DNA of 64,000 bases from Acidimicrobiaceae bacterium (GCA_003132165.1 PKWW01000027.1:3312-67311), one strand, 5' to 3'. Shown: positions 3,819 through 59,072, numbered from the stretch's first letter. The notes: generated by a model from the sequence alone, not told the origin. Translations and numbers: made by a program.

Positions 3819-3876
3819 CCCGTTCGCTTACGCGGGTACTTCCAATTTGACGATCAATCGTGGGGCGCACCGCGAT

Positions 3877-4053
3877 CTAGTGATGCAACGATTCAGTTGG
3901 TCGGACCTCGTGCGGCAGCGGACTTTCGAGTTGGTCGAGGTACTTGATTGCGGTGATCATCGTCTCGACGAAACGATCGGCGAGGTCCGTCCAGAGACCG
4001 TTACGAACCACTATTCGCCGCATTGTGAGACTCGAGAGATCTAGCGGCATCGG
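3877..4053 (-). pseudogene. Glutamate decarboxylase C-terminal remnant
   Basis: Reads PMPLDLSSLTMRRIVVRNGLWTDLADRFVETMITAIKYLDQLESPLPHEVRPTESLHH*, resembling actinobacterial GadB tails (MP..DL.V.RIVVRNG...FHH); in-frame stop just upstream; absent from the ORF track. Confidence 0.55.
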
Positions 4054-4202: not shown

Positions 4203-5768
4203 CTAGATCGCCCGGCCGGTCCCTTCCCAGTACGGATCACGCAGAAGCCGCTTGTAAAGTTTCCCCGTCGGTGATCGTGGCAGACGCTCCTCGAAGTCGA
4301 TCGACCTCGGAACCTTGTAACCGGCAAGGTTCCGTCGAACGAAGGTCATGAGTTCGGTAGCCAGCTCCGGTGAACCGATGACGCCCTCGACGAGTTCGAC
4401 CGCGGCCTTCACCTGTTCGCCCATCTCCTCGTCGGGTACTCCGAAGACTGCGGCGTCCGCAACTGCGGGGTGGGTGACGAGCACGCCTTCGATCTCTGCG
4501 GGATAGATGTTGACACCGCCGCTGATGATCATGTCGATCTTGCGGTCACTCAGGAACAAGTAACCTTCGTCGTCCAGGTATCCAACGTCACCGATCGTGC
4601 CGACGCCGGGTGCGAGATGGGCGGCCTCGGTCTTCTCCGTCGCCTTGTTGTACGAGAAGTCGGCCCCGCCGAGGCTCCGAAAGTAAATCTGGCCCACTTC
4701 TCCGGGCCCGCACGGCTGTTGGTGATCGTCAACAATCGTCACCTCGAAACCCTTCACGGGCTTGCCTACGCTCCCTGGGCGCTCCAGCCACTCAGGGCCG
4801 TGGATTACTGTGAGGAACCCGCTCTCGGTCCCGCCGTAGTACTCAGTGATCACCGGTCCCCACCAGTCGAGCATCTGCTGCTTCACCTTCAAGGGGCACG
4901 GCGCCGCGCCGTGTATCACCGATACGAGCGATGAACCGTCGAAGATCTCACGCGTCGCTTCGGGCAACTTGAGCAATCGACTGAGCTGCGTAGGAACGAG
5001 ATGGGTGTTGGTGACCCGGTGACGGTCAACCAACGTCAACAGCGAAGCCGCGTCGAAGTGCTGGCGCATCACGCAGGTGCTGCCGAGCGCCAGAAGCGGG
5101 TACAACGACAGCGCGAGTTGCGCCGAATGATAGGCGGGACCATCCAGCAACGTCACACCTTCGGCCGGAATCTGCAGGACCGAGCTGACACCGATTCCGA
5201 GAAGCTTGACGAGCGCTAGGTCGTTACCCGTGGCATTGAGGCCTGAGCGAACACCCTTGGGAAATCCAGTAGTACCCGAGGTGTAAAACATTGGACCGCC
5301 GCTCGCCTGATTATCGGGCTCGTCAGTGGGTTGATCCGCAATCACGTCCTCGTAGTTGAGAAAACCCGGTAACTCGCGCTCGCCAATGATGATCTTGGTG
5401 GTGCAACCGCTTGTCTGCGGGTCGAGGCACGCTTCGCGGGCCGCGTCGGCGAACTGGTCCTCGACGAAGAGCACCTTGGCGTCGCAGTCCGCGAGTACGT
5501 AGGCCAGCTCCCTGCTGACCCAGTGCCAGTTCACTGGGACGAACACCAACGAGGTGTGGGCCGCCGCCGCGGCCACCTCGAAGAACTCACGACGATTGCC
5601 CGACATTATGGCGACGGTGTCGCCCGGTTGCACACCAGTTGCTCGCAACAGATGAATCACCTGGTTGACCCGATCATTGAACAGCGACCACGTCGTCGCA
5701 CCCTGCTCATCGATGACCGCGATCGCCGACCCCTTTCGATCGACGACGTCCATAATGAGTTGCGCCAT
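4203..5768 (-). CDS. Acyl-CoA synthetase (AMP-binding, FadD4-like)
   Basis: [39 protein letters not shown] and TGKLYKR motifs. Confidence 0.92.
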
Positions 5769-6922: not shown

Positions 6923-7368
6923 GCGGTGTTCGGTGGTGTCATCGCGTTGACGTTGGCCGTTCTCACCTTCACCAGTCCGTGACGTCCTGAGTCGAACACT
7001 CGACTGGCAAGGCGATCCTCTCCAGCTCTATTTGCTGTGACGCGACGTGTCGCCAAAACCGACAATCAGCGCTACCGCTCGAAAATGGGCGAACTCGTGT
7101 CATCGGATGTCGCCATGCGGCTCTTGAACAGGAAGTCAAAACTGAGTCGACCGGCCCCGAGGCACACGACGATGAGCGCCAACGCCGCGAGCGCCAAGTT
7201 CAACTCGTAGCCCGTCCTTGGTGGTGCGGCGTGAATTCCATTGGCCCACGTGACCGTGACCATGGCCATCATCATGTCGAGGAACAAGGCCATCCCGGCC
7301 AGACGCGTGACCAATCCGAGAGTGAGTGCGACGCCACCGCCAAACTCGATGACACCACCGAACACCGC
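6923..7368. repeat. 22-bp perfect inverted repeat pair (6923-6944 and 7347-7368)
   Basis: GCGGTGTTCGGTGGTGTCATCG at 6923 is the exact reverse complement of 7347-7368 inside doxX. Confidence 0.9.
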
Positions 7369-7608
7369 AAAGAATCCTCCGGGATGAAGGTGCGCGGTAT
7401 CCGCAAAGAACAGGGCAGTCTGGTGCAGTCCGGGGCCATTGAACGCCCCGAAAAGTTTGCCCGCTCCGTAGTAGATGAAGACCCACGCGAGGGCGAGGCG
7501 CGCGCCCGCGAGCGCGATATCGGCCGGTATCGACGGATTACGACTCTCCAACACAGTGATGAAGAACGTGCGCGCTCTGCCCCGATCTCGAGGCTCTTCT
7601 CTCAGCAT
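7072..7608 (-). CDS. DoxX family membrane protein
   Basis: ARLALAWVFIYYGAGKLFG, EFGGG..L.LGL.TR, GYELNL; start overlaps the desaturase stop. Confidence 0.88.
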   Translation of the reverse strand: MLREEPRDRGRARTFFITVLESRNPSIPADIALAGARLALAWVFIYYGAGKLFGAFNGPGLHQTALFFADTAHLHPGGFFAVFGGVIEFGGGVALTLGLVTRLAGMALFLDMMMAMVTVTWANGIHAAPPRTGYELNLALAALALIVVCLGAGRLSFDFLFKSRMATSDDTSSPIFER

Positions 7609-8729
7609 TCGCCAACCCCGGCATCAGCGTGCGCCGCCCGATCAGTGTCGTTACGCGCTCTCTGTTCGAGTTGCCGCTCGCTCGAGTACGCGCGGTCTGC
7701 GCCGGCGGGTGATACCCAGGGATCGCTGCCTTCGCCGATGGGGCGAAAGGGCGCGACGAGTTGGGCGGCGAAGACCCTGAGATGGCGCGGTCGGTCCCCC
7801 GCCTGTTCGACCATGAGTGGGCGCCCCGCGAGGCCCGTATCGATGCGGATGGTCTCGGACGTCGGGAAGAACGCACGATGCGAGAGCTGGTCCCAGATCG
7901 TCAACGCGAAGCCGAGATTCACGTCCTGCGGTCCGTCGAGGCGGTGGTGGATGCGGTGATAATTCGGGCTCACGAATAAACGACCAAGCGGTCCGAAGCC
8001 CAGATTCGTGTTCGAGTGGGCGAACGCGACCACGCCGGCGTACGCGACCAGCAACGCCGTCGTCACCGCCCCGTTGGCGAGCAGCACCGTGCCCGGAATC
8101 AGGGCGATCAGGTAGGAGACGTGAATCAGCGGGTGCGTGCGAAAGACGGTCAGCACGCTCATGTCCTCTTGTGAGTGATGCACCTCGTGGAACCGCCAGA
8201 GCACGCGCACCCTGTGGTTCGCCAGGTGCGCCAACCAATTACAGCCGTCCATCGCCACGAAGATCAGAGCAATGACGATCCAACGCGGCATCAGGCCGAG
8301 CCTCGGCATGACCACCCACGGCATTGTCGTGCGGGCCACTTCGGAAAACGAAAGGGTGAGCGCCACGACCAGTGGCGCGACCAGCGTGGCGTTCAGCACG
8401 GTGAAGAGAAGGTCATGACGGTAGCCACGCGCGAAAGGCGATCGGCGCTGTGCCGGGCGTAGACGTTCGACCATGAGGAAGACACCGAGCAAGAGGAGGG
8501 TCACCGGACCAACTGCGACAACACGCAGACTCGTCATCGCACCAGCGAAGCTCGCCCCTCCCCACCGGCTGGCCAGTCCGATCGCAGTCAGCGTGACCGC
8601 AACGGCCATGATCGAAAATGCTGGCAAATAGAGCCGTGACGCCAACGCACGTGCCATCGTACGAACGCGCCGCACGCGCGGAGCAACGAGCAATTCTGTA
8701 CGAACCGAAGTCACGACTGCTGTTGACAT
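7602..8729 (-). CDS. Sterol desaturase / fatty acid hydroxylase family protein
   Basis: His boxes HLANH, HEVHHS and YHRIHH; membrane segments. Confidence 0.88.
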   Translation of the reverse strand: MSTAVVTSVRTELLVAPRVRRVRTMARALASRLYLPAFSIMAVAVTLTAIGLASRWGGASFAGAMTSLRVVAVGPVTLLLLGVFLMVERLRPAQRRSPFARGYRHDLLFTVLNATLVAPLVVALTLSFSEVARTTMPWVVMPRLGLMPRWIVIALIFVAMDGCNWLAHLANHRVRVLWRFHEVHHSQEDMSVLTVFRTHPLIHVSYLIALIPGTVLLANGAVTTALLVAYAGVVAFAHSNTNLGFGPLGRLFVSPNYHRIHHRLDGPQDVNLGFALTIWDQLSHRAFFPTSETIRIDTGLAGRPLMVEQAGDRPRHLRVFAAQLVAPFRPIGEGSDPWVSPAGADRAYSSERQLEQRARNDTDRAAHADAGVGEC

Positions 8730-8754
8730 GATTCTCCCCCGGCTATCAACCTGG

Positions 8755-9291
8755 CTAGAACGAGACCCCTCCACTACTCGGGCTCGTTGTTGTTGTCGTT
8801 GTCGACGAACCGGACGTAACGGCGGCCTTGGTCACGACGACGGACCACTTTCCCCACGTGTCGGTCACGTTGCCGTTGACCTGGTCCGGGGCGGTGTCGC
8901 CGGCGAACCGGTAGAGGGCCTTACCGGCGTAGGTGACCTGGAGCGCACCTCCGGTGCGCCTGATGACCCCCAGCTTGGCGGCGCTGACGCCGCTGCCCGC
9001 AGTTGCCTTGGTCGCGCCTTTGGGCAAGAGGACCTCAGGCCACACCGCGAGGCAACTGGCCTTGCAGGCCGTCGCGCTGGGCTTCAGGCTATAGACCGTT
9101 TTCCCGCTGACCAGGATGGTCCCGTACTGGGTGGTCTTTAGAGTTGCGACGACGACACCCTTGACCGCGTGGCTCTTCGCAGCACCCGCCGAGTTGACCA
9201 TGACCGACGCGGACAACCCGCTGATCGTGATACACGCAACTCCCACGTATCGGAGCAGAATTCGACGCGACTTCCTCTTCTTCACAATCAT
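8755..9291 (-). CDS. Secreted protein of COG4315 / Yx(FWY)xxD repeat type
   Basis: Basic n-region plus hydrophobic signal peptide; C..SC...WP and QVTYAGKALYRFAGD motifs; Thr/Ser-rich tail. Confidence 0.8.
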   Translation of the reverse strand: MIVKKRKSRRILLRYVGVACITISGLSASVMVNSAGAAKSHAVKGVVVATLKTTQYGTILVSGKTVYSLKPSATACKASCLAVWPEVLLPKGATKATAGSGVSAAKLGVIRRTGGALQVTYAGKALYRFAGDTAPDQVNGNVTDTWGKWSVVVTKAAVTSGSSTTTTTTSPSSGGVSF

Positions 9292-9349: not shown

Positions 9350-9377
9350 GATACGGAGGGCCCGATGAAAAGGATCA
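9350..9377 (-). promoter_or_regulatory. Putative ECF sigma promoter for the secreted protein-desaturase-doxX operon
   Basis: Minus strand TGATCC-N17-GTATC, same layout as the site upstream of the sigma gene. Confidence 0.7.
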
Positions 9378-9421
9378 CGGGAACCAACCGAAATCTTGGA
9401 TATTCGCGAAACCACCGCCGA

Positions 9422-10102
9422 TCACACCGACAGACGGGCGCTTGCGATAACGGCACCATCGGCGGCCACGATTCGAGCGCTGCGAACCTGAGCGGCGCTC
9501 ACCGTCAAACGAGCCGCCCACGCGCTGTAGTCGCCAGACAGATTGAACCACCCGACCGTCAAAGTCTGGCCGTTGTTCAGCGTGACTTCGCAGGAAACGT
9601 CGCCCGACAACTTTGCGGAATCGACAGTCACGAACATCCACGTAGGCTGATCAGTGGAAATGACTACTTGGCCCATGACCCGTCCGTTCGAGGTGAGTTG
9701 AGCCAGGGCTGGAGCGGCTGCGACGGACCGATTGGGGCTTCCCGTCCCGTTGTTCGAGACAAAGACACCTACGCCGAAGCCGAGAACGGCGACGAGCACG
9801 GCCGCTATCGCGAATGCGCTCACTCGTCGAAATCGTCGTGACCGGTCTCGCTGAGCTGCCTCGCGAAGTTTCTCTGAAAGACGTGACTCAAATCCCAGGG
9901 GCGGCTCAATCTCGGGCGTCAGCATCAATAGCGTGTCCGCTGCGGTCGACAGCGATTCAAGTTCCGCCCCGCAGTGGGCGCAGGACTCGAGGTGATCGAG
10001 GACCTCGGCTCTTTCGCGGCCCGCAAGGATTCCGAGCGCGAGTTCGGCGAGATCATCCTGAACCATCTGACACTTATCTGGGTCTCGCGTGTACTGGCTC
10101 AT
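9422..10102 (-). CDS. Membrane-anchored zinc-finger (ZAS) anti-sigma factor
   Basis: HLESCAHC (HxxxCxxC), one TM helix, extracytoplasmic domain; ATGA overlap with the sigma stop. Confidence 0.88.
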   Translation of the reverse strand: MSQYTRDPDKCQMVQDDLAELALGILAGRERAEVLDHLESCAHCGAELESLSTAADTLLMLTPEIEPPLGFESRLSEKLREAAQRDRSRRFRRVSAFAIAAVLVAVLGFGVGVFVSNNGTGSPNRSVAAAPALAQLTSNGRVMGQVVISTDQPTWMFVTVDSAKLSGDVSCEVTLNNGQTLTVGWFNLSGDYSAWAARLTVSAAQVRSARIVAADGAVIASARLSV

Positions 10103-10677
10103 GGGCTCTCCGATATCACAAGAGTCTCTCGAAGCTTCGCCATCCCCAGCCGAATTCGACTCTTTGCAGTTCCCAATGGGATTGACTCCACGGCCGCCAC
10201 CTCGACAGCTGTCCTCCCGTACATCGCAGCCAGTACAACTGCGCGTCGCTGCTCCATCGGGAGGTTCGAGAGCGCAATCCGAACTCGGGTCATCGCGTCT
10301 GCGGCCAACGCGGTGTCCTCCGGCTGACGCTCGACACTCACGAGCTCGAGGAACACACGATCGTCGGGAGCGACTGGAATACTCCGTCGAATCCGTACGG
10401 CGTCGATGGCCAGATTGCGGGTGATGGTCAGCGTCCACGTTGTGACAGAACCCCGACGTGCATCGAACACCGAAGCGTGCCGCACTATCCGAATGAACGC
10501 CTCTTGGGCAACGTCCTCGGCCGTACCAACGTCGCCAACAATCCCGAATGCGAGTCCGAACAGTCGGCGCTGGTAACGCCGGACGAACGTCAATACAGCC
10601 TGCTCGTCACCTACCGCGATGCCGGAGAGAAGGGTCTCGTCCGAAACCCCTTCATCCTTGCCGTGACGCTTCCTCAT
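10099..10677 (-). CDS. ECF RNA polymerase sigma factor (SigK-like)
   Basis: AEDVAQEAF region 2, RNLAIDAVR, region 4 IPLGTAKSRIRLGM. Confidence 0.92.
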   Translation of the reverse strand: MRKRHGKDEGVSDETLLSGIAVGDEQAVLTFVRRYQRRLFGLAFGIVGDVGTAEDVAQEAFIRIVRHASVFDARRGSVTTWTLTITRNLAIDAVRIRRSIPVAPDDRVFLELVSVERQPEDTALAADAMTRVRIALSNLPMEQRRAVVLAAMYGRTAVEVAAVESIPLGTAKSRIRLGMAKLRETLVISESP

Positions 10678-10685
10678 CGTTAGAT

Positions 10686-10713
10686 AGTACGGCTGATGGG
10701 TCAATTTGGATCA
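10686..10713 (-). promoter_or_regulatory. Putative autoregulated ECF promoter, probably leaderless
   Basis: Minus strand TGATCC-N17-GTACT ending 8 nt before the ATG at 10677; no SD sequence in between. Confidence 0.7.
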
Positions 10714-10813: not shown

Positions 10814-12514
10814 CTATATGAAGTCCTCTTCACGGTATTCACCCTGTGGCCTCCCGTCGATGCGCTCGATTTCTGCGGTGCGTAGTTCGACGCGACGGAT
10901 CTTGCCGCTGATGGTCTTTGGAAGATTAGTGAACTCCAGACGTCGGATTCGCTTGTACGGCGCCAGATTCGCCCGGCAGTGGGCCAGAATCTCGCCGGCG
11001 AGTTCGCGACTCGGCTCGATGCCGACGACGAGTGTGACGTAGGCCTTGGGCACCGTCAGGCGCTTCTCGTCGGGCGCGGGTACGACCGCAGCCTCACCAA
11101 CGGCGTAGTGCTCGATCAGAACGCTCTCCAACTCGAAAGGACTGATCCGGTAGTCACTCGATTTGAACACGTCGTCGGTGCGGCCAATGAACGTGATGAA
11201 GCCGTCGTCGTCGCGCGCCGCCACGTCGCCCGTGTGGTAGCGACCACCGGCGAACGCCCGCTCGTTCACCTCGGTGCTCGAACCGATTCCGGTTTGGTAG
11301 CCGACCATCAAGCCCACCGGTCGGTCCGTTCCACAGCGCACGCAGATCTCACCTTCGTCGGCGACCGCGTCGGTGACGGGGTCGACGAGATCGATGTGGA
11401 ACCCCGGCATCGGGCGACCCATGGACCCCGCCTTCAGGGGCTGGCCCGGCGAGTTGCCGATCTGCAGTGTCGTCTCGGTCTGTCCGTAACCGTCACGAAT
11501 CACGAGACCCCACTCACGACGCACGTGTTCGATCACCTCGGGGTTCAGCGGCTCGCCGGCACTCAGGGCCTCGCGCAGCGACATCGACCACTTCGAGAGG
11601 TCTTGCTGGACCAACGTGCGCCACACCGTCGGTGGAGCGCAGAACGTCGTCACCTTGGCGTCACGAAGGACGTCGAGCATCGCGACCGGATCGAAGCGCT
11701 CGTAGTTGAACAGACAGATTGTCGCCCCCGCGATCCACGGCGCGAAGACGCACGACCAGGCGTGCTTGGCCCAGCCGGGGCTCGACACGTTGAGATGCAC
11801 GTCGCCGGGCTGGAGTCCGATCCAGTACATCGTCGAAAGATGCCCAATCGGATAGCTCACGTTAGTGTGCTCGACGATCTTCGGTAGCGACGTCGTGCCC
11901 GACGTGAAGTACACCAGCAGAAGATCGCTCGCCGCCGTCGGCGCGTCCACATCGAACGCCGTCGAACTGGCATCCGACTCCGTAAAGTCGTGCCAGCCGC
12001 TGACCGGCGCACCGACGGCGACGCGAAGGAAGTCGCCCGGTACGTCGTCGAAGTTGTGCGTCACGTCTGATCGTGCGATCACTGCGCCCGCCTCGGCCCG
12101 GTCAACACGGTCGCGCAGGTCGGCCGGGGTCAGCATCGTGGTCGCCGGTATGAGGACCGCCCCGAGCTTCATCGCCGCGAGGAACGACTCCCACAACTCC
12201 ACCTGATTGCCGAGCAGGACGAGAATTCGCGTGCCGCGCTTGACTCCGAGGTCGCGCAACCAGTTGGCCAGTTGGTTGGAGCGGTGCGAGAGTTGCGCGT
12301 AGGTATACGACGCATCGGTCCCGTCGCCCTCGATTATCCGCAGGGCCGCTCGGGTGGGGTGCTCGGCAACGAGCACACCGTCGAACCAGTCGATCGCGAA
12401 GTTGAAGTGCTCCGGTCGGGGCCAGACGAATTGTTCGTACGCGGTCTCGTAGTCGGAGCGGTGCTCGAGAAGAAAGTCCCGGGCCTTACGAAAATCCTCG
12501 GTCGCAGTAGCCAC
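10814..12514 (-). CDS. Acyl-CoA synthetase (short/medium-chain, acetate-CoA ligase-like)
   Basis: YFTSGTTSLPK, DGYGQTET, YHTGD, TISGKIRR. Confidence 0.92.
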   Translation of the reverse strand: MATATEDFRKARDFLLEHRSDYETAYEQFVWPRPEHFNFAIDWFDGVLVAEHPTRAALRIIEGDGTDASYTYAQLSHRSNQLANWLRDLGVKRGTRILVLLGNQVELWESFLAAMKLGAVLIPATTMLTPADLRDRVDRAEAGAVIARSDVTHNFDDVPGDFLRVAVGAPVSGWHDFTESDASSTAFDVDAPTAASDLLLVYFTSGTTSLPKIVEHTNVSYPIGHLSTMYWIGLQPGDVHLNVSSPGWAKHAWSCVFAPWIAGATICLFNYERFDPVAMLDVLRDAKVTTFCAPPTVWRTLVQQDLSKWSMSLREALSAGEPLNPEVIEHVRREWGLVIRDGYGQTETTLQIGNSPGQPLKAGSMGRPMPGFHIDLVDPVTDAVADEGEICVRCGTDRPVGLMVGYQTGIGSSTEVNERAFAGGRYHTGDVAARDDDGFITFIGRTDDVFKSSDYRISPFELESVLIEHYAVGEAAVVPAPDEKRLTVPKAYVTLVVGIEPSRELAGEILAHCRANLAPYKRIRRLEFTNLPKTISGKIRRVELRTAEIERIDGRPQGEYREEDFI

Positions 12515-13086
12515 TCTTGTCCATCCCTCTGTTGTCGGTGCCAGACTCCTGTTGAAGGCTGTCTACGTTCTAACCCGGGCTCCACGTTGCGTCAAATGCG
12601 CCATCACCCGATTATCGGTCAATCCTCATATTGGAACGTGGACATCTGGTTCGTTGGAAACTGTGATCGGACTTCCTTTCCCTTGCGCCCATTCGGCAAG
12701 CTCGGTTGGAGATGGAGTGCGGCAAATAGCGCTCCACACCGAGCTCTGAACCGAACTATGTCCTACGCGCCGACCGCCGCCAGCGTTTCGGTTGACGCTT
12801 CAACGGGGTGCGCCGGCGGCGAAACAACCGGGTCTTACCTCCCTCCACGTCCAGTACGGAGTTTGTCCCCGGCAGACCTTGACGGGCCAGGTTGAAGGCC
12901 GCGTAATTCATGTGGACTCCAGCATGAACCACCGAGGCGCAGCCCCTAAACAAAAACGTCAGTCTCTCTTTTGACCATCGATGATCAGGAGGTACGCCAA
13001 AGGCAAAGTTGTGACTTTCGACACCTATGAAGGCGGGGCGGTACCCGTACGTTCTAAATGGAGGCTTCACTTACGAAAGGATTTCT

Positions 13087-13485
13087 ATGGGCAGCCAAAA
13101 GAGGAACGAGGGTTTAGGGCTTGTCGCGGCAGTGGCGTGTTGCGGGATGATGCTCGGCGCGTGCGAGCACTGTCGACATGCGAGAAAACAACGTCGACAC
13201 CAGTGCTGTGATGCAAACGAAGGCCCCGGACACAAGCACGGCCACGGCCCTTGCGCCTGTAACGAGCACGGCCCCGGACATGACGAAGGCCCCGGACACA
13301 AGCACAGCCACGGTCCGTGCGCCTGCAACGAACACGGCCCCGGACATGACGAAGGCCCCGGACATCCCCACGGTCCCGGACACGAAGATGATCCGATCAG
13401 GATGCTCGACGTACGCTTCGCCAAGGGTGAGATCGACGAAGCTGATTACCTGCGCCGCCGCGAGATTCTCAAGGGCACGCACTAA
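13087..13485 (+). CDS. His/Cys-rich repeat protein with C-terminal SHOCT domain
   Basis: GAAAGGA RBS-like sequence; C-terminal LDVRFAKGEIDEADYLRRREIL; 17 His and 10 Cys in 132 aa. Confidence 0.8.
   Translation: MGSQKRNEGLGLVAAVACCGMMLGACEHCRHARKQRRHQCCDANEGPGHKHGHGPCACNEHGPGHDEGPGHKHSHGPCACNEHGPGHDEGPGHPHGPGHEDDPIRMLDVRFAKGEIDEADYLRRREILKGTH
13219..13365 (+). repeat. 66-bp in-frame tandem repeat, about 2.2 copies
   Basis: Units begin GAAGGCCCCGGACA at 13219, 13285 and 13351; encode EGPGHKH(G/S)HGPCACNEHGPGHD. Confidence 0.95.
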
Positions 13486-58893: not shown

Positions 58894-58968
58894 GGACCTG
58901 TGGTGCAGCTCGGAGTGCACGCCGCCCTGTCAAGGCGGAGGTCGCGGGTTCAAATCCCGTCAGGTCCG
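58894..58968 (+). tRNA. tRNA-Asp(GTC)
   Basis: Acceptor GGACCTG/CAGGTCC, D-stem GTGC/GCAC, anticodon loop CTGTCAA, T-loop TTCAAAT; CCA not encoded. Confidence 0.95.
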
Positions 58969-58996
58969 CTCGACACCCGAAAGGGTGACGAGGTTA

Positions 58997-59072
58997 GGTC
59001 GAGTAGCTCAGTTGGTAGAGCGCGCGCCTGAAAAGCGTGAGGTCACCGGATCGACGCCGGTCTCGACCACCA
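58997..59072 (+). tRNA. tRNA-Phe(GAA)
   Basis: Acceptor GGTCGAG/CTCGACC, anticodon loop CTGAAAA, T-loop ATCGACG, encoded CCA. Confidence 0.96.

Follow-up and report, generated by a model that had tools for sequence, protein, structure and literature searches.

The sigma locus and its two boxes

The 64-kb stretch of DNA from an Acidimicrobiaceae bacterium that was analyzed here over its full length (GCA_003132165.1, PKWW01000027.1:3312-67311; hereafter the window) carries on its minus strand a gene for a sigma factor of the extracytoplasmic function (ECF) type, an anti-sigma gene and three further genes in the same orientation. The same bipartite box, TGATCC-N16-CGTA, stands before the sigma gene (P1) and before the three genes that follow the anti-sigma gene (P2), and these two boxes are the subject of the present analysis (Table 1).

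Direct reading of the minus strand places both sites where an earlier note on this sequence had put them and bears out the common -35 hexamer and spacing that it described. In P1, the hexamer is followed by the spacer aaattgacccatcagc, then CGTA, ctatctaacg and the ATG of the sigma gene, while in P2 the hexamer is followed by ttttcatcgggccctc and CGTA. Each spacer is 16 nucleotides (nt) long, and the natural description of the two sites is TGATCC-N16-CGTA, which is the same as the TGATCC-N17-GTA of the earlier note; the remark that both spacers end in CC holds if the C of CGTA is counted. P1 lies inside the 136-nt gap 5' of the sigma gene, with the end of its CGTA 10 nt from the ATG, and P2 lies inside the 130-nt gap that runs from the anti-sigma stop codon (9422) to the ATG of the lipoprotein gene (9291). 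Both boxes have the orientation of their downstream genes, and the DNA sequencing runs mapped to the window showed no variants in either promoter.

The TGATCC-N17-GTA pattern has just two exact matches on both strands of the 64 kb, compared with 0.24 expected, and at least two matches occurred in 3 of 100 shuffles. A search of the window for GATCC-N16-CGTA with one mismatch showed no enrichment (15 observed, 17.7 expected). The window statistics alone (p ~0.03) are only suggestive and cannot carry the claim by themselves. A position weight matrix derived from the orthologous sites described below was also applied to the window and to shuffled windows. The two sites scored 25.8 and 22.9, the next best position in the window scored 10.5, and the maxima of the shuffled windows ranged from 6.8 to 16.3. 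Scanning of the region for sigma-70 consensus promoters and for terminators found neither, including in the gap between the anti-sigma and lipoprotein genes.

Among the genes, the sigma factor contains the Pfam domains PF04542 plus PF08281/PF04545 and nothing else, which is the composition of an ECF (group 4) sigma-70 factor, and it scores 68.3 against the TIGR02937 sigma70-ECF model (cutoff 42.9). No second ECF sigma gene is present within the window. The anti-sigma gene, whose ATG overlaps the sigma stop codon (ATGA), encodes a zf-HC2 domain with the signature HLESCAHC (H-x3-C-x2-C), one hydrophobic transmembrane helix of 22 residues and an outside domain of about 95 residues; the NCBIfam anti-sigma models all score below their cutoffs. 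This class I anti-sigma-domain gene adjoining the sigma gene is kept beside it in most of the 80 orthologous loci, and in a few of them the best anti-sigma match is found elsewhere within the locus. The hydroxylase gene (63-79% identity) and the DoxX gene, which overlaps the hydroxylase stop codon, are likewise syntenic in most orthologous loci. PDB sequence searches with the lipoprotein and the anti-sigma retrieved no solved relatives.

Table 1. Promoter elements and genes of the sigma locus, in positions of the window; locus counts refer to the 80 orthologous loci
Feature	Position	Strand	Basis and remarks
-35 element TGATCC of P1 (sigma/anti-sigma operon)	10708..10713	-	Direct reading; same register in 74/80 loci
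-10 element CGTA of P1	10688..10691	-	Direct reading; overlaps TACTAT 10689-10684; invariant in orthologues
ECF sigma factor gene, 192 residues, ATG 10677	10099..10677	-	Pfam Sigma70_r2 and r4_2; TIGR02937
Anti-sigma gene, 226 residues	9422..10102	-	Pfam PF13490 zf-HC2 at N-terminus
-35 element TGATCC of P2 (target operon)	9372..9377	-	Direct reading; equivalent site in 58 loci
-10 element CGTA of P2, then TCAC	9352..9355	-	CGTAnnnC, typical of target sites
Secreted/lipoprotein gene with Lipoprotein_15 domain, tail ...SSGGVSF	8755..9291	-	Pfam PF03640, E=4e-11; first gene after P2
Membrane fatty-acid hydroxylase/sterol-desaturase-family gene	7602..8732	-	Pfam PF04116, E=4e-22; second P2 gene
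DoxX-family membrane protein gene	7072..7608	-	Pfam PF07681, E=6e-16; third P2 gene

Conservation of the motif across orthologous loci

We interpret the two boxes as ECF-type promoters that are probably recognised by RNA polymerase containing the ECF sigma encoded at 10677-10099, a reading to which we assign a probability of about 0.85. Where the window statistics only suggest, the comparative data appear decisive. Relatives of this sigma factor number in the thousands; the closest are 70-81% identical, are nearly all 192-194 residues long and share a common start methionine, and those of them that are named come from Acidimicrobiales metagenome-assembled genomes. The comparison comprised 80 orthologous Acidimicrobiales loci from species-representative genomes (58-75% sigma identity), of about 8.5 kb each and 635 kb together. 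When these are aligned on the sigma start, almost every locus reads TGATC[CT], or [GC]AATCC in a more distant clade, followed by 16 nt, CGTA, about 10 nt and ATG or GTG.

The scan with the motif that the earlier note had proposed for predicting the regulon gave no further site within the window. In the orthologous loci the scan was productive, with 177 occurrences of [GA]ATC[CT]-N16-CGTA on both strands compared with 10.8 expected from block shuffles, a 16-fold enrichment. In 74 of the 80 loci a copy of the motif is situated 20-70 nt upstream of sigma, and in 58 loci a copy precedes a Lipoprotein_15 or hydroxylase gene. In loci where a divergent lipoprotein gene is located upstream of sigma (L021, L023, L028, L029, L046 and others), a second motif is found on the opposite strand, facing the lipoprotein gene; the motif therefore travels with its target gene, which is not the behaviour of an accidental repeat. 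Model-free counting of 5-mers upstream of sigma returned CCGTA (13-fold) and TGATC as the most enriched words, and the same counting upstream of the lipoprotein gene returned CCGTA, TGATC and a Shine-Dalgarno sequence. A conserved bipartite -35/-10 with a fixed spacer is thus found upstream of both the sigma gene and the regulon genes.

The type of the -35 word (G or A) agrees between the sigma gene's own promoter and the other sites of the same locus in 83 cases, with 3 discordant. In the clade with AATCC, the sigma factor has the substitutions S173T and L177A/T, both within the recognition helix of sigma-4 (G-T-A-K-S-R-I-R-L). That the adjacent sigma reads the motif is shown only indirectly, by the tight linkage, the lack of a paralogue in the window and the concerted change of the -35. 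The proposal of the earlier note, a cognate autoregulatory promoter and a second promoter of the same regulon, gains strong support from this footprinting, from the 74 of 80 and the 58 loci mentioned above and from the concordance of the -35 words.

The CGTA word is invariant in the orthologues. In 48 loci, 9-10 nt separate its end from the start codon of sigma, and this interval contains no Shine-Dalgarno sequence. At other targets the start comes 4-8 nt past CGTA, as seen for a 176-residue membrane protein of the AATCC clade and for the hydroxylase in L050 and L059. Because CGTA is only 10 nt from the ATG and no Shine-Dalgarno sequence intervenes, the sigma mRNA is predicted to be leaderless or nearly so, and such short distances between CGTA and the start codon imply that transcription must start within about 10 nt of the box, in line with the prediction of the earlier note. 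For P2, the start is predicted at about 9346-9343, and the leader would then measure about 52-55 nt and contain the Shine-Dalgarno words GAGGAGG and GAGGTGG.

Two observations concern the distribution of the motif. In L063-L079, at about 3920-3990 (e.g., L073, 3952 on the minus strand and 3967 on the plus strand), two copies overlap back-to-back: one faces the sigma gene and the other faces a leaderless gene whose start is 8 nt after CGTA. This gene encodes the 176-residue protein, which has four membrane helices (IHFHLW...GY..IPTIGPLFLLQ) and matched no Pfam or NCBIfam family. In addition, plasmid SNP1 of Streptomyces nigrescens (L081, NZ_AP026074.1) carries a sigma homologue 55% identical to that of the window, with CAATCC-N16-CGTA 9 nt before its ATG and two more [GA]AATCC-N16-CGTA nearby (sites at 138, 2637 and 3936), from which the pairing of promoter and sigma would reach beyond Acidimicrobiales.

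Transcript boundaries and alternative readings

Assembled metatranscriptome contigs indicate that the sigma mRNA begins shortly downstream of P1. At L011 (CGTA end 3990, ATG 4001), eight independent peat metatranscriptomes yielded contigs whose first positions are 4012, 4013, 4013, 4023, 4032, 4048, 4048 and 4106, and positions 3832-4011 are covered by no contig, also when 85% likeness was allowed in the four deepest runs. At L013, where the -10 is CGTAGAAC (TAGAAC, not TANNNT), contigs begin at 4021, 4032 and 4136, and no contig covers 3847-4020. The contig starts nearest to P1 lie inside the gene, 11-23 nt from its beginning, and none lies upstream of it (two orthologues, 12 run-by-locus observations), which excludes read-through from upstream. 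Three of the four L013 runs have deeper coverage over the lipoprotein gene than over sigma (30, 12 and 12 versus 0, 8 and 4), and a coverage gap separates the two genes, indicating that the L013 lipoprotein gene has its own promoter. The window itself is represented by sparse contigs from one metatranscriptome, none of them over P1.

Several points weigh against our interpretation of the boxes. The contigs are strandless, and they bound the P1 start to about 20 nt without fixing the exact base. Contigs of L011, and one of the window, run across the P2 site, indicating read-through from the anti-sigma gene. Within L013 5417-5537, the contigs of the lipoprotein gene begin at 5510, 5532 and 5537, some 90 nt past the start expected from its CGTA (5413-5416), and the predicted P2 leader is covered by no contig in four metatranscriptomes; leader processing, a further promoter near the gene or thin coverage could account for this offset. 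The RNA boundary thus supports the position of P1 only, not that of P2. In addition, the co-variation of the -35 with the sigma-4 helix corresponds to a single phylogenetic split, and is consistent with cognate recognition without being proof of it. Lastly, a TANNNT hexamer, TACTAT, overlaps the CGTA of P1 at a distance of 6 nt from the A of the ATG, so that P1 may be here a dual promoter to which the housekeeping sigma factor (sigma-A) contributes.

This hexamer is the basis of the reading, which we consider unlikely, that P1 is, or also is, a leaderless sigma-A promoter in which TGATCC is an incidental or weak -35. Of 74 orthologues, 29, apparently the closer relatives, have TACTAT in the same place, and its placement would suit an actinobacterial leaderless transcript ideally. 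L011 also carries it, and the RNA contigs of that locus do not separate the two readings. However, TANNNT is kept in only 34 of the 74 sites upstream of sigma and in none of the 68 target sites, which read CGTAnnnC instead, whereas the 40 and 68 sites without it keep both CGTA and [GA]ATC[CT] at the fixed spacing. L013 has TAGAAC, yet its transcript boundary falls just past the box, the sigma-70 consensus scan was empty, and sigma-A would not explain P2. Judged from this distribution, an overlapping housekeeping promoter cannot explain the whole family of sites. Sigma-A as the only reader was therefore rejected on the invariance of CGTA and the counts of TANNNT, and it may plausibly act only through a basal promoter that overlaps P1.

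If the boxes are genuine ECF promoters, they might still be read by another ECF sigma, a paralogue whose gene lies elsewhere in the genome. Some related genomes hold two copies of the locus (L055/L058, L079, L044), and in actinobacteria rich in ECFs the specificities of paralogues often overlap. Nevertheless, the linkage of the motif to this particular sigma gene, the switch of the -35 word together with residues of this sigma's recognition helix, the lack of any other ECF gene in the window and the fact that autoregulation is the rule for ECFs (PMC7826278) make a paralogous reader highly improbable. The idea that the boxes are the operator of a repressor or activator, or a chance repeat, is weaker still. 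The modest in-window p and the small palindrome GATC could speak for it, but the motif is asymmetric and bipartite, keeps a fixed 16-nt spacing, always faces the downstream gene and matches a known ECF consensus. Its enrichment over 635 kb and its position, with 4-10 nt between its end and the start codon in several leaderless genes across the orthologous loci, led us to reject this possibility, which is scarcely credible. Recognition of both boxes by the adjacent ECF sigma is thus the reading that we retain.

Predicted circuit and comparison with known systems

Under recognition by the adjacent sigma, P1 would drive the sigma/anti-sigma operon in positive autoregulation, and P2 would boost a three-gene operon encoding the secreted Lipoprotein_15 protein, the membrane enzyme of the fatty-acid hydroxylase family and the DoxX membrane protein. 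The P2 operon could also be reached by read-through from P1, because no terminator was found between them. By its class, the membrane-spanning zinc-finger anti-sigma would hold the sigma factor in the resting state, and an envelope or redox signal would release it, so that both promoters fire: P1 would then amplify sigma and anti-sigma, and P2 would raise the lipoprotein, the hydroxylase and DoxX. This output suggests a role in the maintenance of membrane lipids or of the envelope redox state. Literature searches on Lipoprotein_15/COG4315 and on ECF plus DoxX returned nothing useful, and no account of this regulon was found in the literature that could be searched.

A C-terminal tail is common to the exported proteins whose genes are preceded by the motif; in it, a linker rich in Thr, Ser, Pro and Gly is followed by a terminal GG[VIA][GSA][FY]. 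The endings GGVGF (31), GGIGF (13), GGASF (5) and GGAGF (5) were counted, and the protein of the window (8755-8800) ends in GGVSF. Among 6541 open reading frame (ORF) segments in the 80 loci, 83 have such an ending, and 71 of these are directly downstream of the motif (e.g., L050:6573, L055:8146, L056:7488, L058:8209, L059:7748 and most lipoprotein genes in L001-L062). The carriers are Lipoprotein_15 proteins, lipoproteins of 65-80 residues without that domain, and a cupredoxin (L080:1283); an NCBIfam search with the short tailed lipoproteins matched no family. In Escherichia coli, the sigma-E pathway is triggered by the C-termini of outer-membrane proteins. By analogy, it can be speculated, at long odds, that the locus defines an undescribed ECF group of peat and soil Acidimicrobiales with Streptomyces relatives, in which the tail acts as the signal, as a ligand of the outside domain of the anti-sigma or of a PDZ-type protease, and closes a feedback loop.

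The surroundings of the locus display some further features. Two AMP-binding (acyl-CoA-synthetase-like) paralogues flank it on the minus strand (4203-5768 and 10814-12514); the upstream one, ending at 10814, is not syntenic in the orthologous loci, where a single weak match was retrieved (L025, 29% identity). A plus-strand ORF at 13027-13485 encodes a Cys/His-rich protein of 152 residues in which GPGHKHxHGPCACNEHGPGHDE units are repeated in tandem and a SHOCT domain lies at the C-terminus (25.3 bits, slightly below the cutoff of 27), and its product looks like a metal-binding protein. Rfam and tRNA scans gave no match near the sigma locus, and their sole matches in the window (Rfam/ARAGORN) are the adjoining tRNA-Asp(GTC) and tRNA-Phe(GAA) at 58894-59072 on the plus strand.

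Taken as a whole, the locus provides a sequence-level handle on a regulatory circuit of abundant, uncultured peat Acidimicrobiales, consisting of a promoter word, a sigma/anti-sigma pair and a small conserved output. With the motif, the full regulon could be sought in metagenome-assembled genomes and the activity of the circuit followed in metatranscriptomes, and the finding is of use in the annotation of uncultured Acidimicrobiales. The understanding of ECF regulation itself is unchanged, as this is an ordinary example of a known bacterial gene switch that would not surprise a specialist.

Regarding the promoter, the closest known counterpart is the RpoE/ChrR system of group ECF11, which includes PSPTO_1043 of Pseudomonas syringae, RpoE2 of Shewanella and RpoE of Rhodobacter sphaeroides. 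Its promoter consensus, TGATCC-N16-CGTA, is identical to the sites of the window, and TGATCCnnnnnnnnnnnnnnnnCGTA, the consensus of PSPTO_1043 obtained by chromatin immunoprecipitation sequencing (ChIP-seq) and quantitative reverse-transcription PCR (qRT-PCR) (PMC5507510), is matched letter for letter. The sites of Shewanella RpoE2 read TGATCC/CGTA(A/T)T with mapped start sites (PMC4336711). The sigma gene of these systems is autoregulated, as is predicted for that of the window, an N-terminal zinc domain with H-x3-C-x2-C is common to the anti-sigma factors, and R. sphaeroides RpoE (2Q1Z) is a clear homologue of the window sigma (61 bits). In contrast, ChrR is soluble with a C-terminal cupin fold (PMC3597554), whereas the anti-sigma found here spans the membrane and has no cupin match. 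The core regulon of ECF11 (photolyase, cyclopropane-fatty-acid synthase, short-chain dehydrogenase/reductase (SDR), amine oxidase) is found neither in the locus nor after the motif sites of the window and the orthologous loci. Moreover, the host is an actinobacterium, and the similarity of its sigma factor to RpoE is no higher than to SigW or SigE. Membership in ECF11 was therefore rejected, on the membrane anti-sigma without cupin and on the absence of photolyase and cyclopropane-fatty-acid synthase (cfa) genes from the regulon seen.

The SigK-RskA pair of Mycobacterium tuberculosis (ECF19, with the neighbouring ECF18) was also considered. The earlier note had likened the -35 to that of SigK-type promoters, but the documented match of the two sites is to the RpoE/ChrR-type consensus instead. 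Its model NF007228 is the best NCBIfam match of the window sigma (115.4 bits, well below the cutoff of 226), and SigK (4NQW) is its best relative in the PDB (70.8 bits), although SigK, SigW, SigE and R. sphaeroides RpoE are all alike at 61-71 bits. The two systems have in common the K-S-R-x-R of the sigma-4 helix, a membrane-anchored anti-sigma and a small regulon. However, the RskA C-terminal domain is absent from the anti-sigma of the window, where only zf-HC2 is found at E up to 1, and there is no mpt70/83-type gene near the locus. A conserved cysteine pair is present in the sigma factors of 94% of ECF18 and 56% of ECF19 members (PMC7509140), whereas the window sigma and 23 aligned orthologues contain no cysteine at all. 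The score below the cutoff, the missing RskA domain and the missing cysteine pair led us to reject this assignment as well.

A further relative is sigma-E of Thermus thermophilus (pTT27), which is 37% identical to the window sigma, and the Thermus anti-sigma-E model PRK13920 is the second-best NCBIfam match of the anti-sigma, below the cutoff like the other models. Direct reading upstream of the Thermus sigma-E gene gives CAAACC-N15-CCGTA, with the same -10 word and spacing as here. The sigma-E consensus of Shinkai et al. from 2007 reportedly matches this sequence. The Thermus system differs in its -35, AAACC instead of GATCC, and in its ferritin-like neighbour genes. SigW of Bacillus subtilis recognises TGAAAC-N16-CGTA. 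The window sites are alike in this generic ECF architecture, with a bipartite -35/-10, a 16-nt spacer and a CGT-containing -10, whereas the -35 word and the regulon (Lipoprotein_15, fatty-acid hydroxylase, DoxX) differ.

The approach itself has precedents, as Staron in 2009 is said to have predicted ECF promoters from autoregulated operons, and such prediction is now standard practice (Casas-Pastor 2021, PMC7826278). At this locus TGATCC-N16-CGTA, known from proteobacterial ECFs of the singlet-oxygen and oxidative-stress responses, would serve an actinobacterial ECF whose anti-sigma and output are both different.

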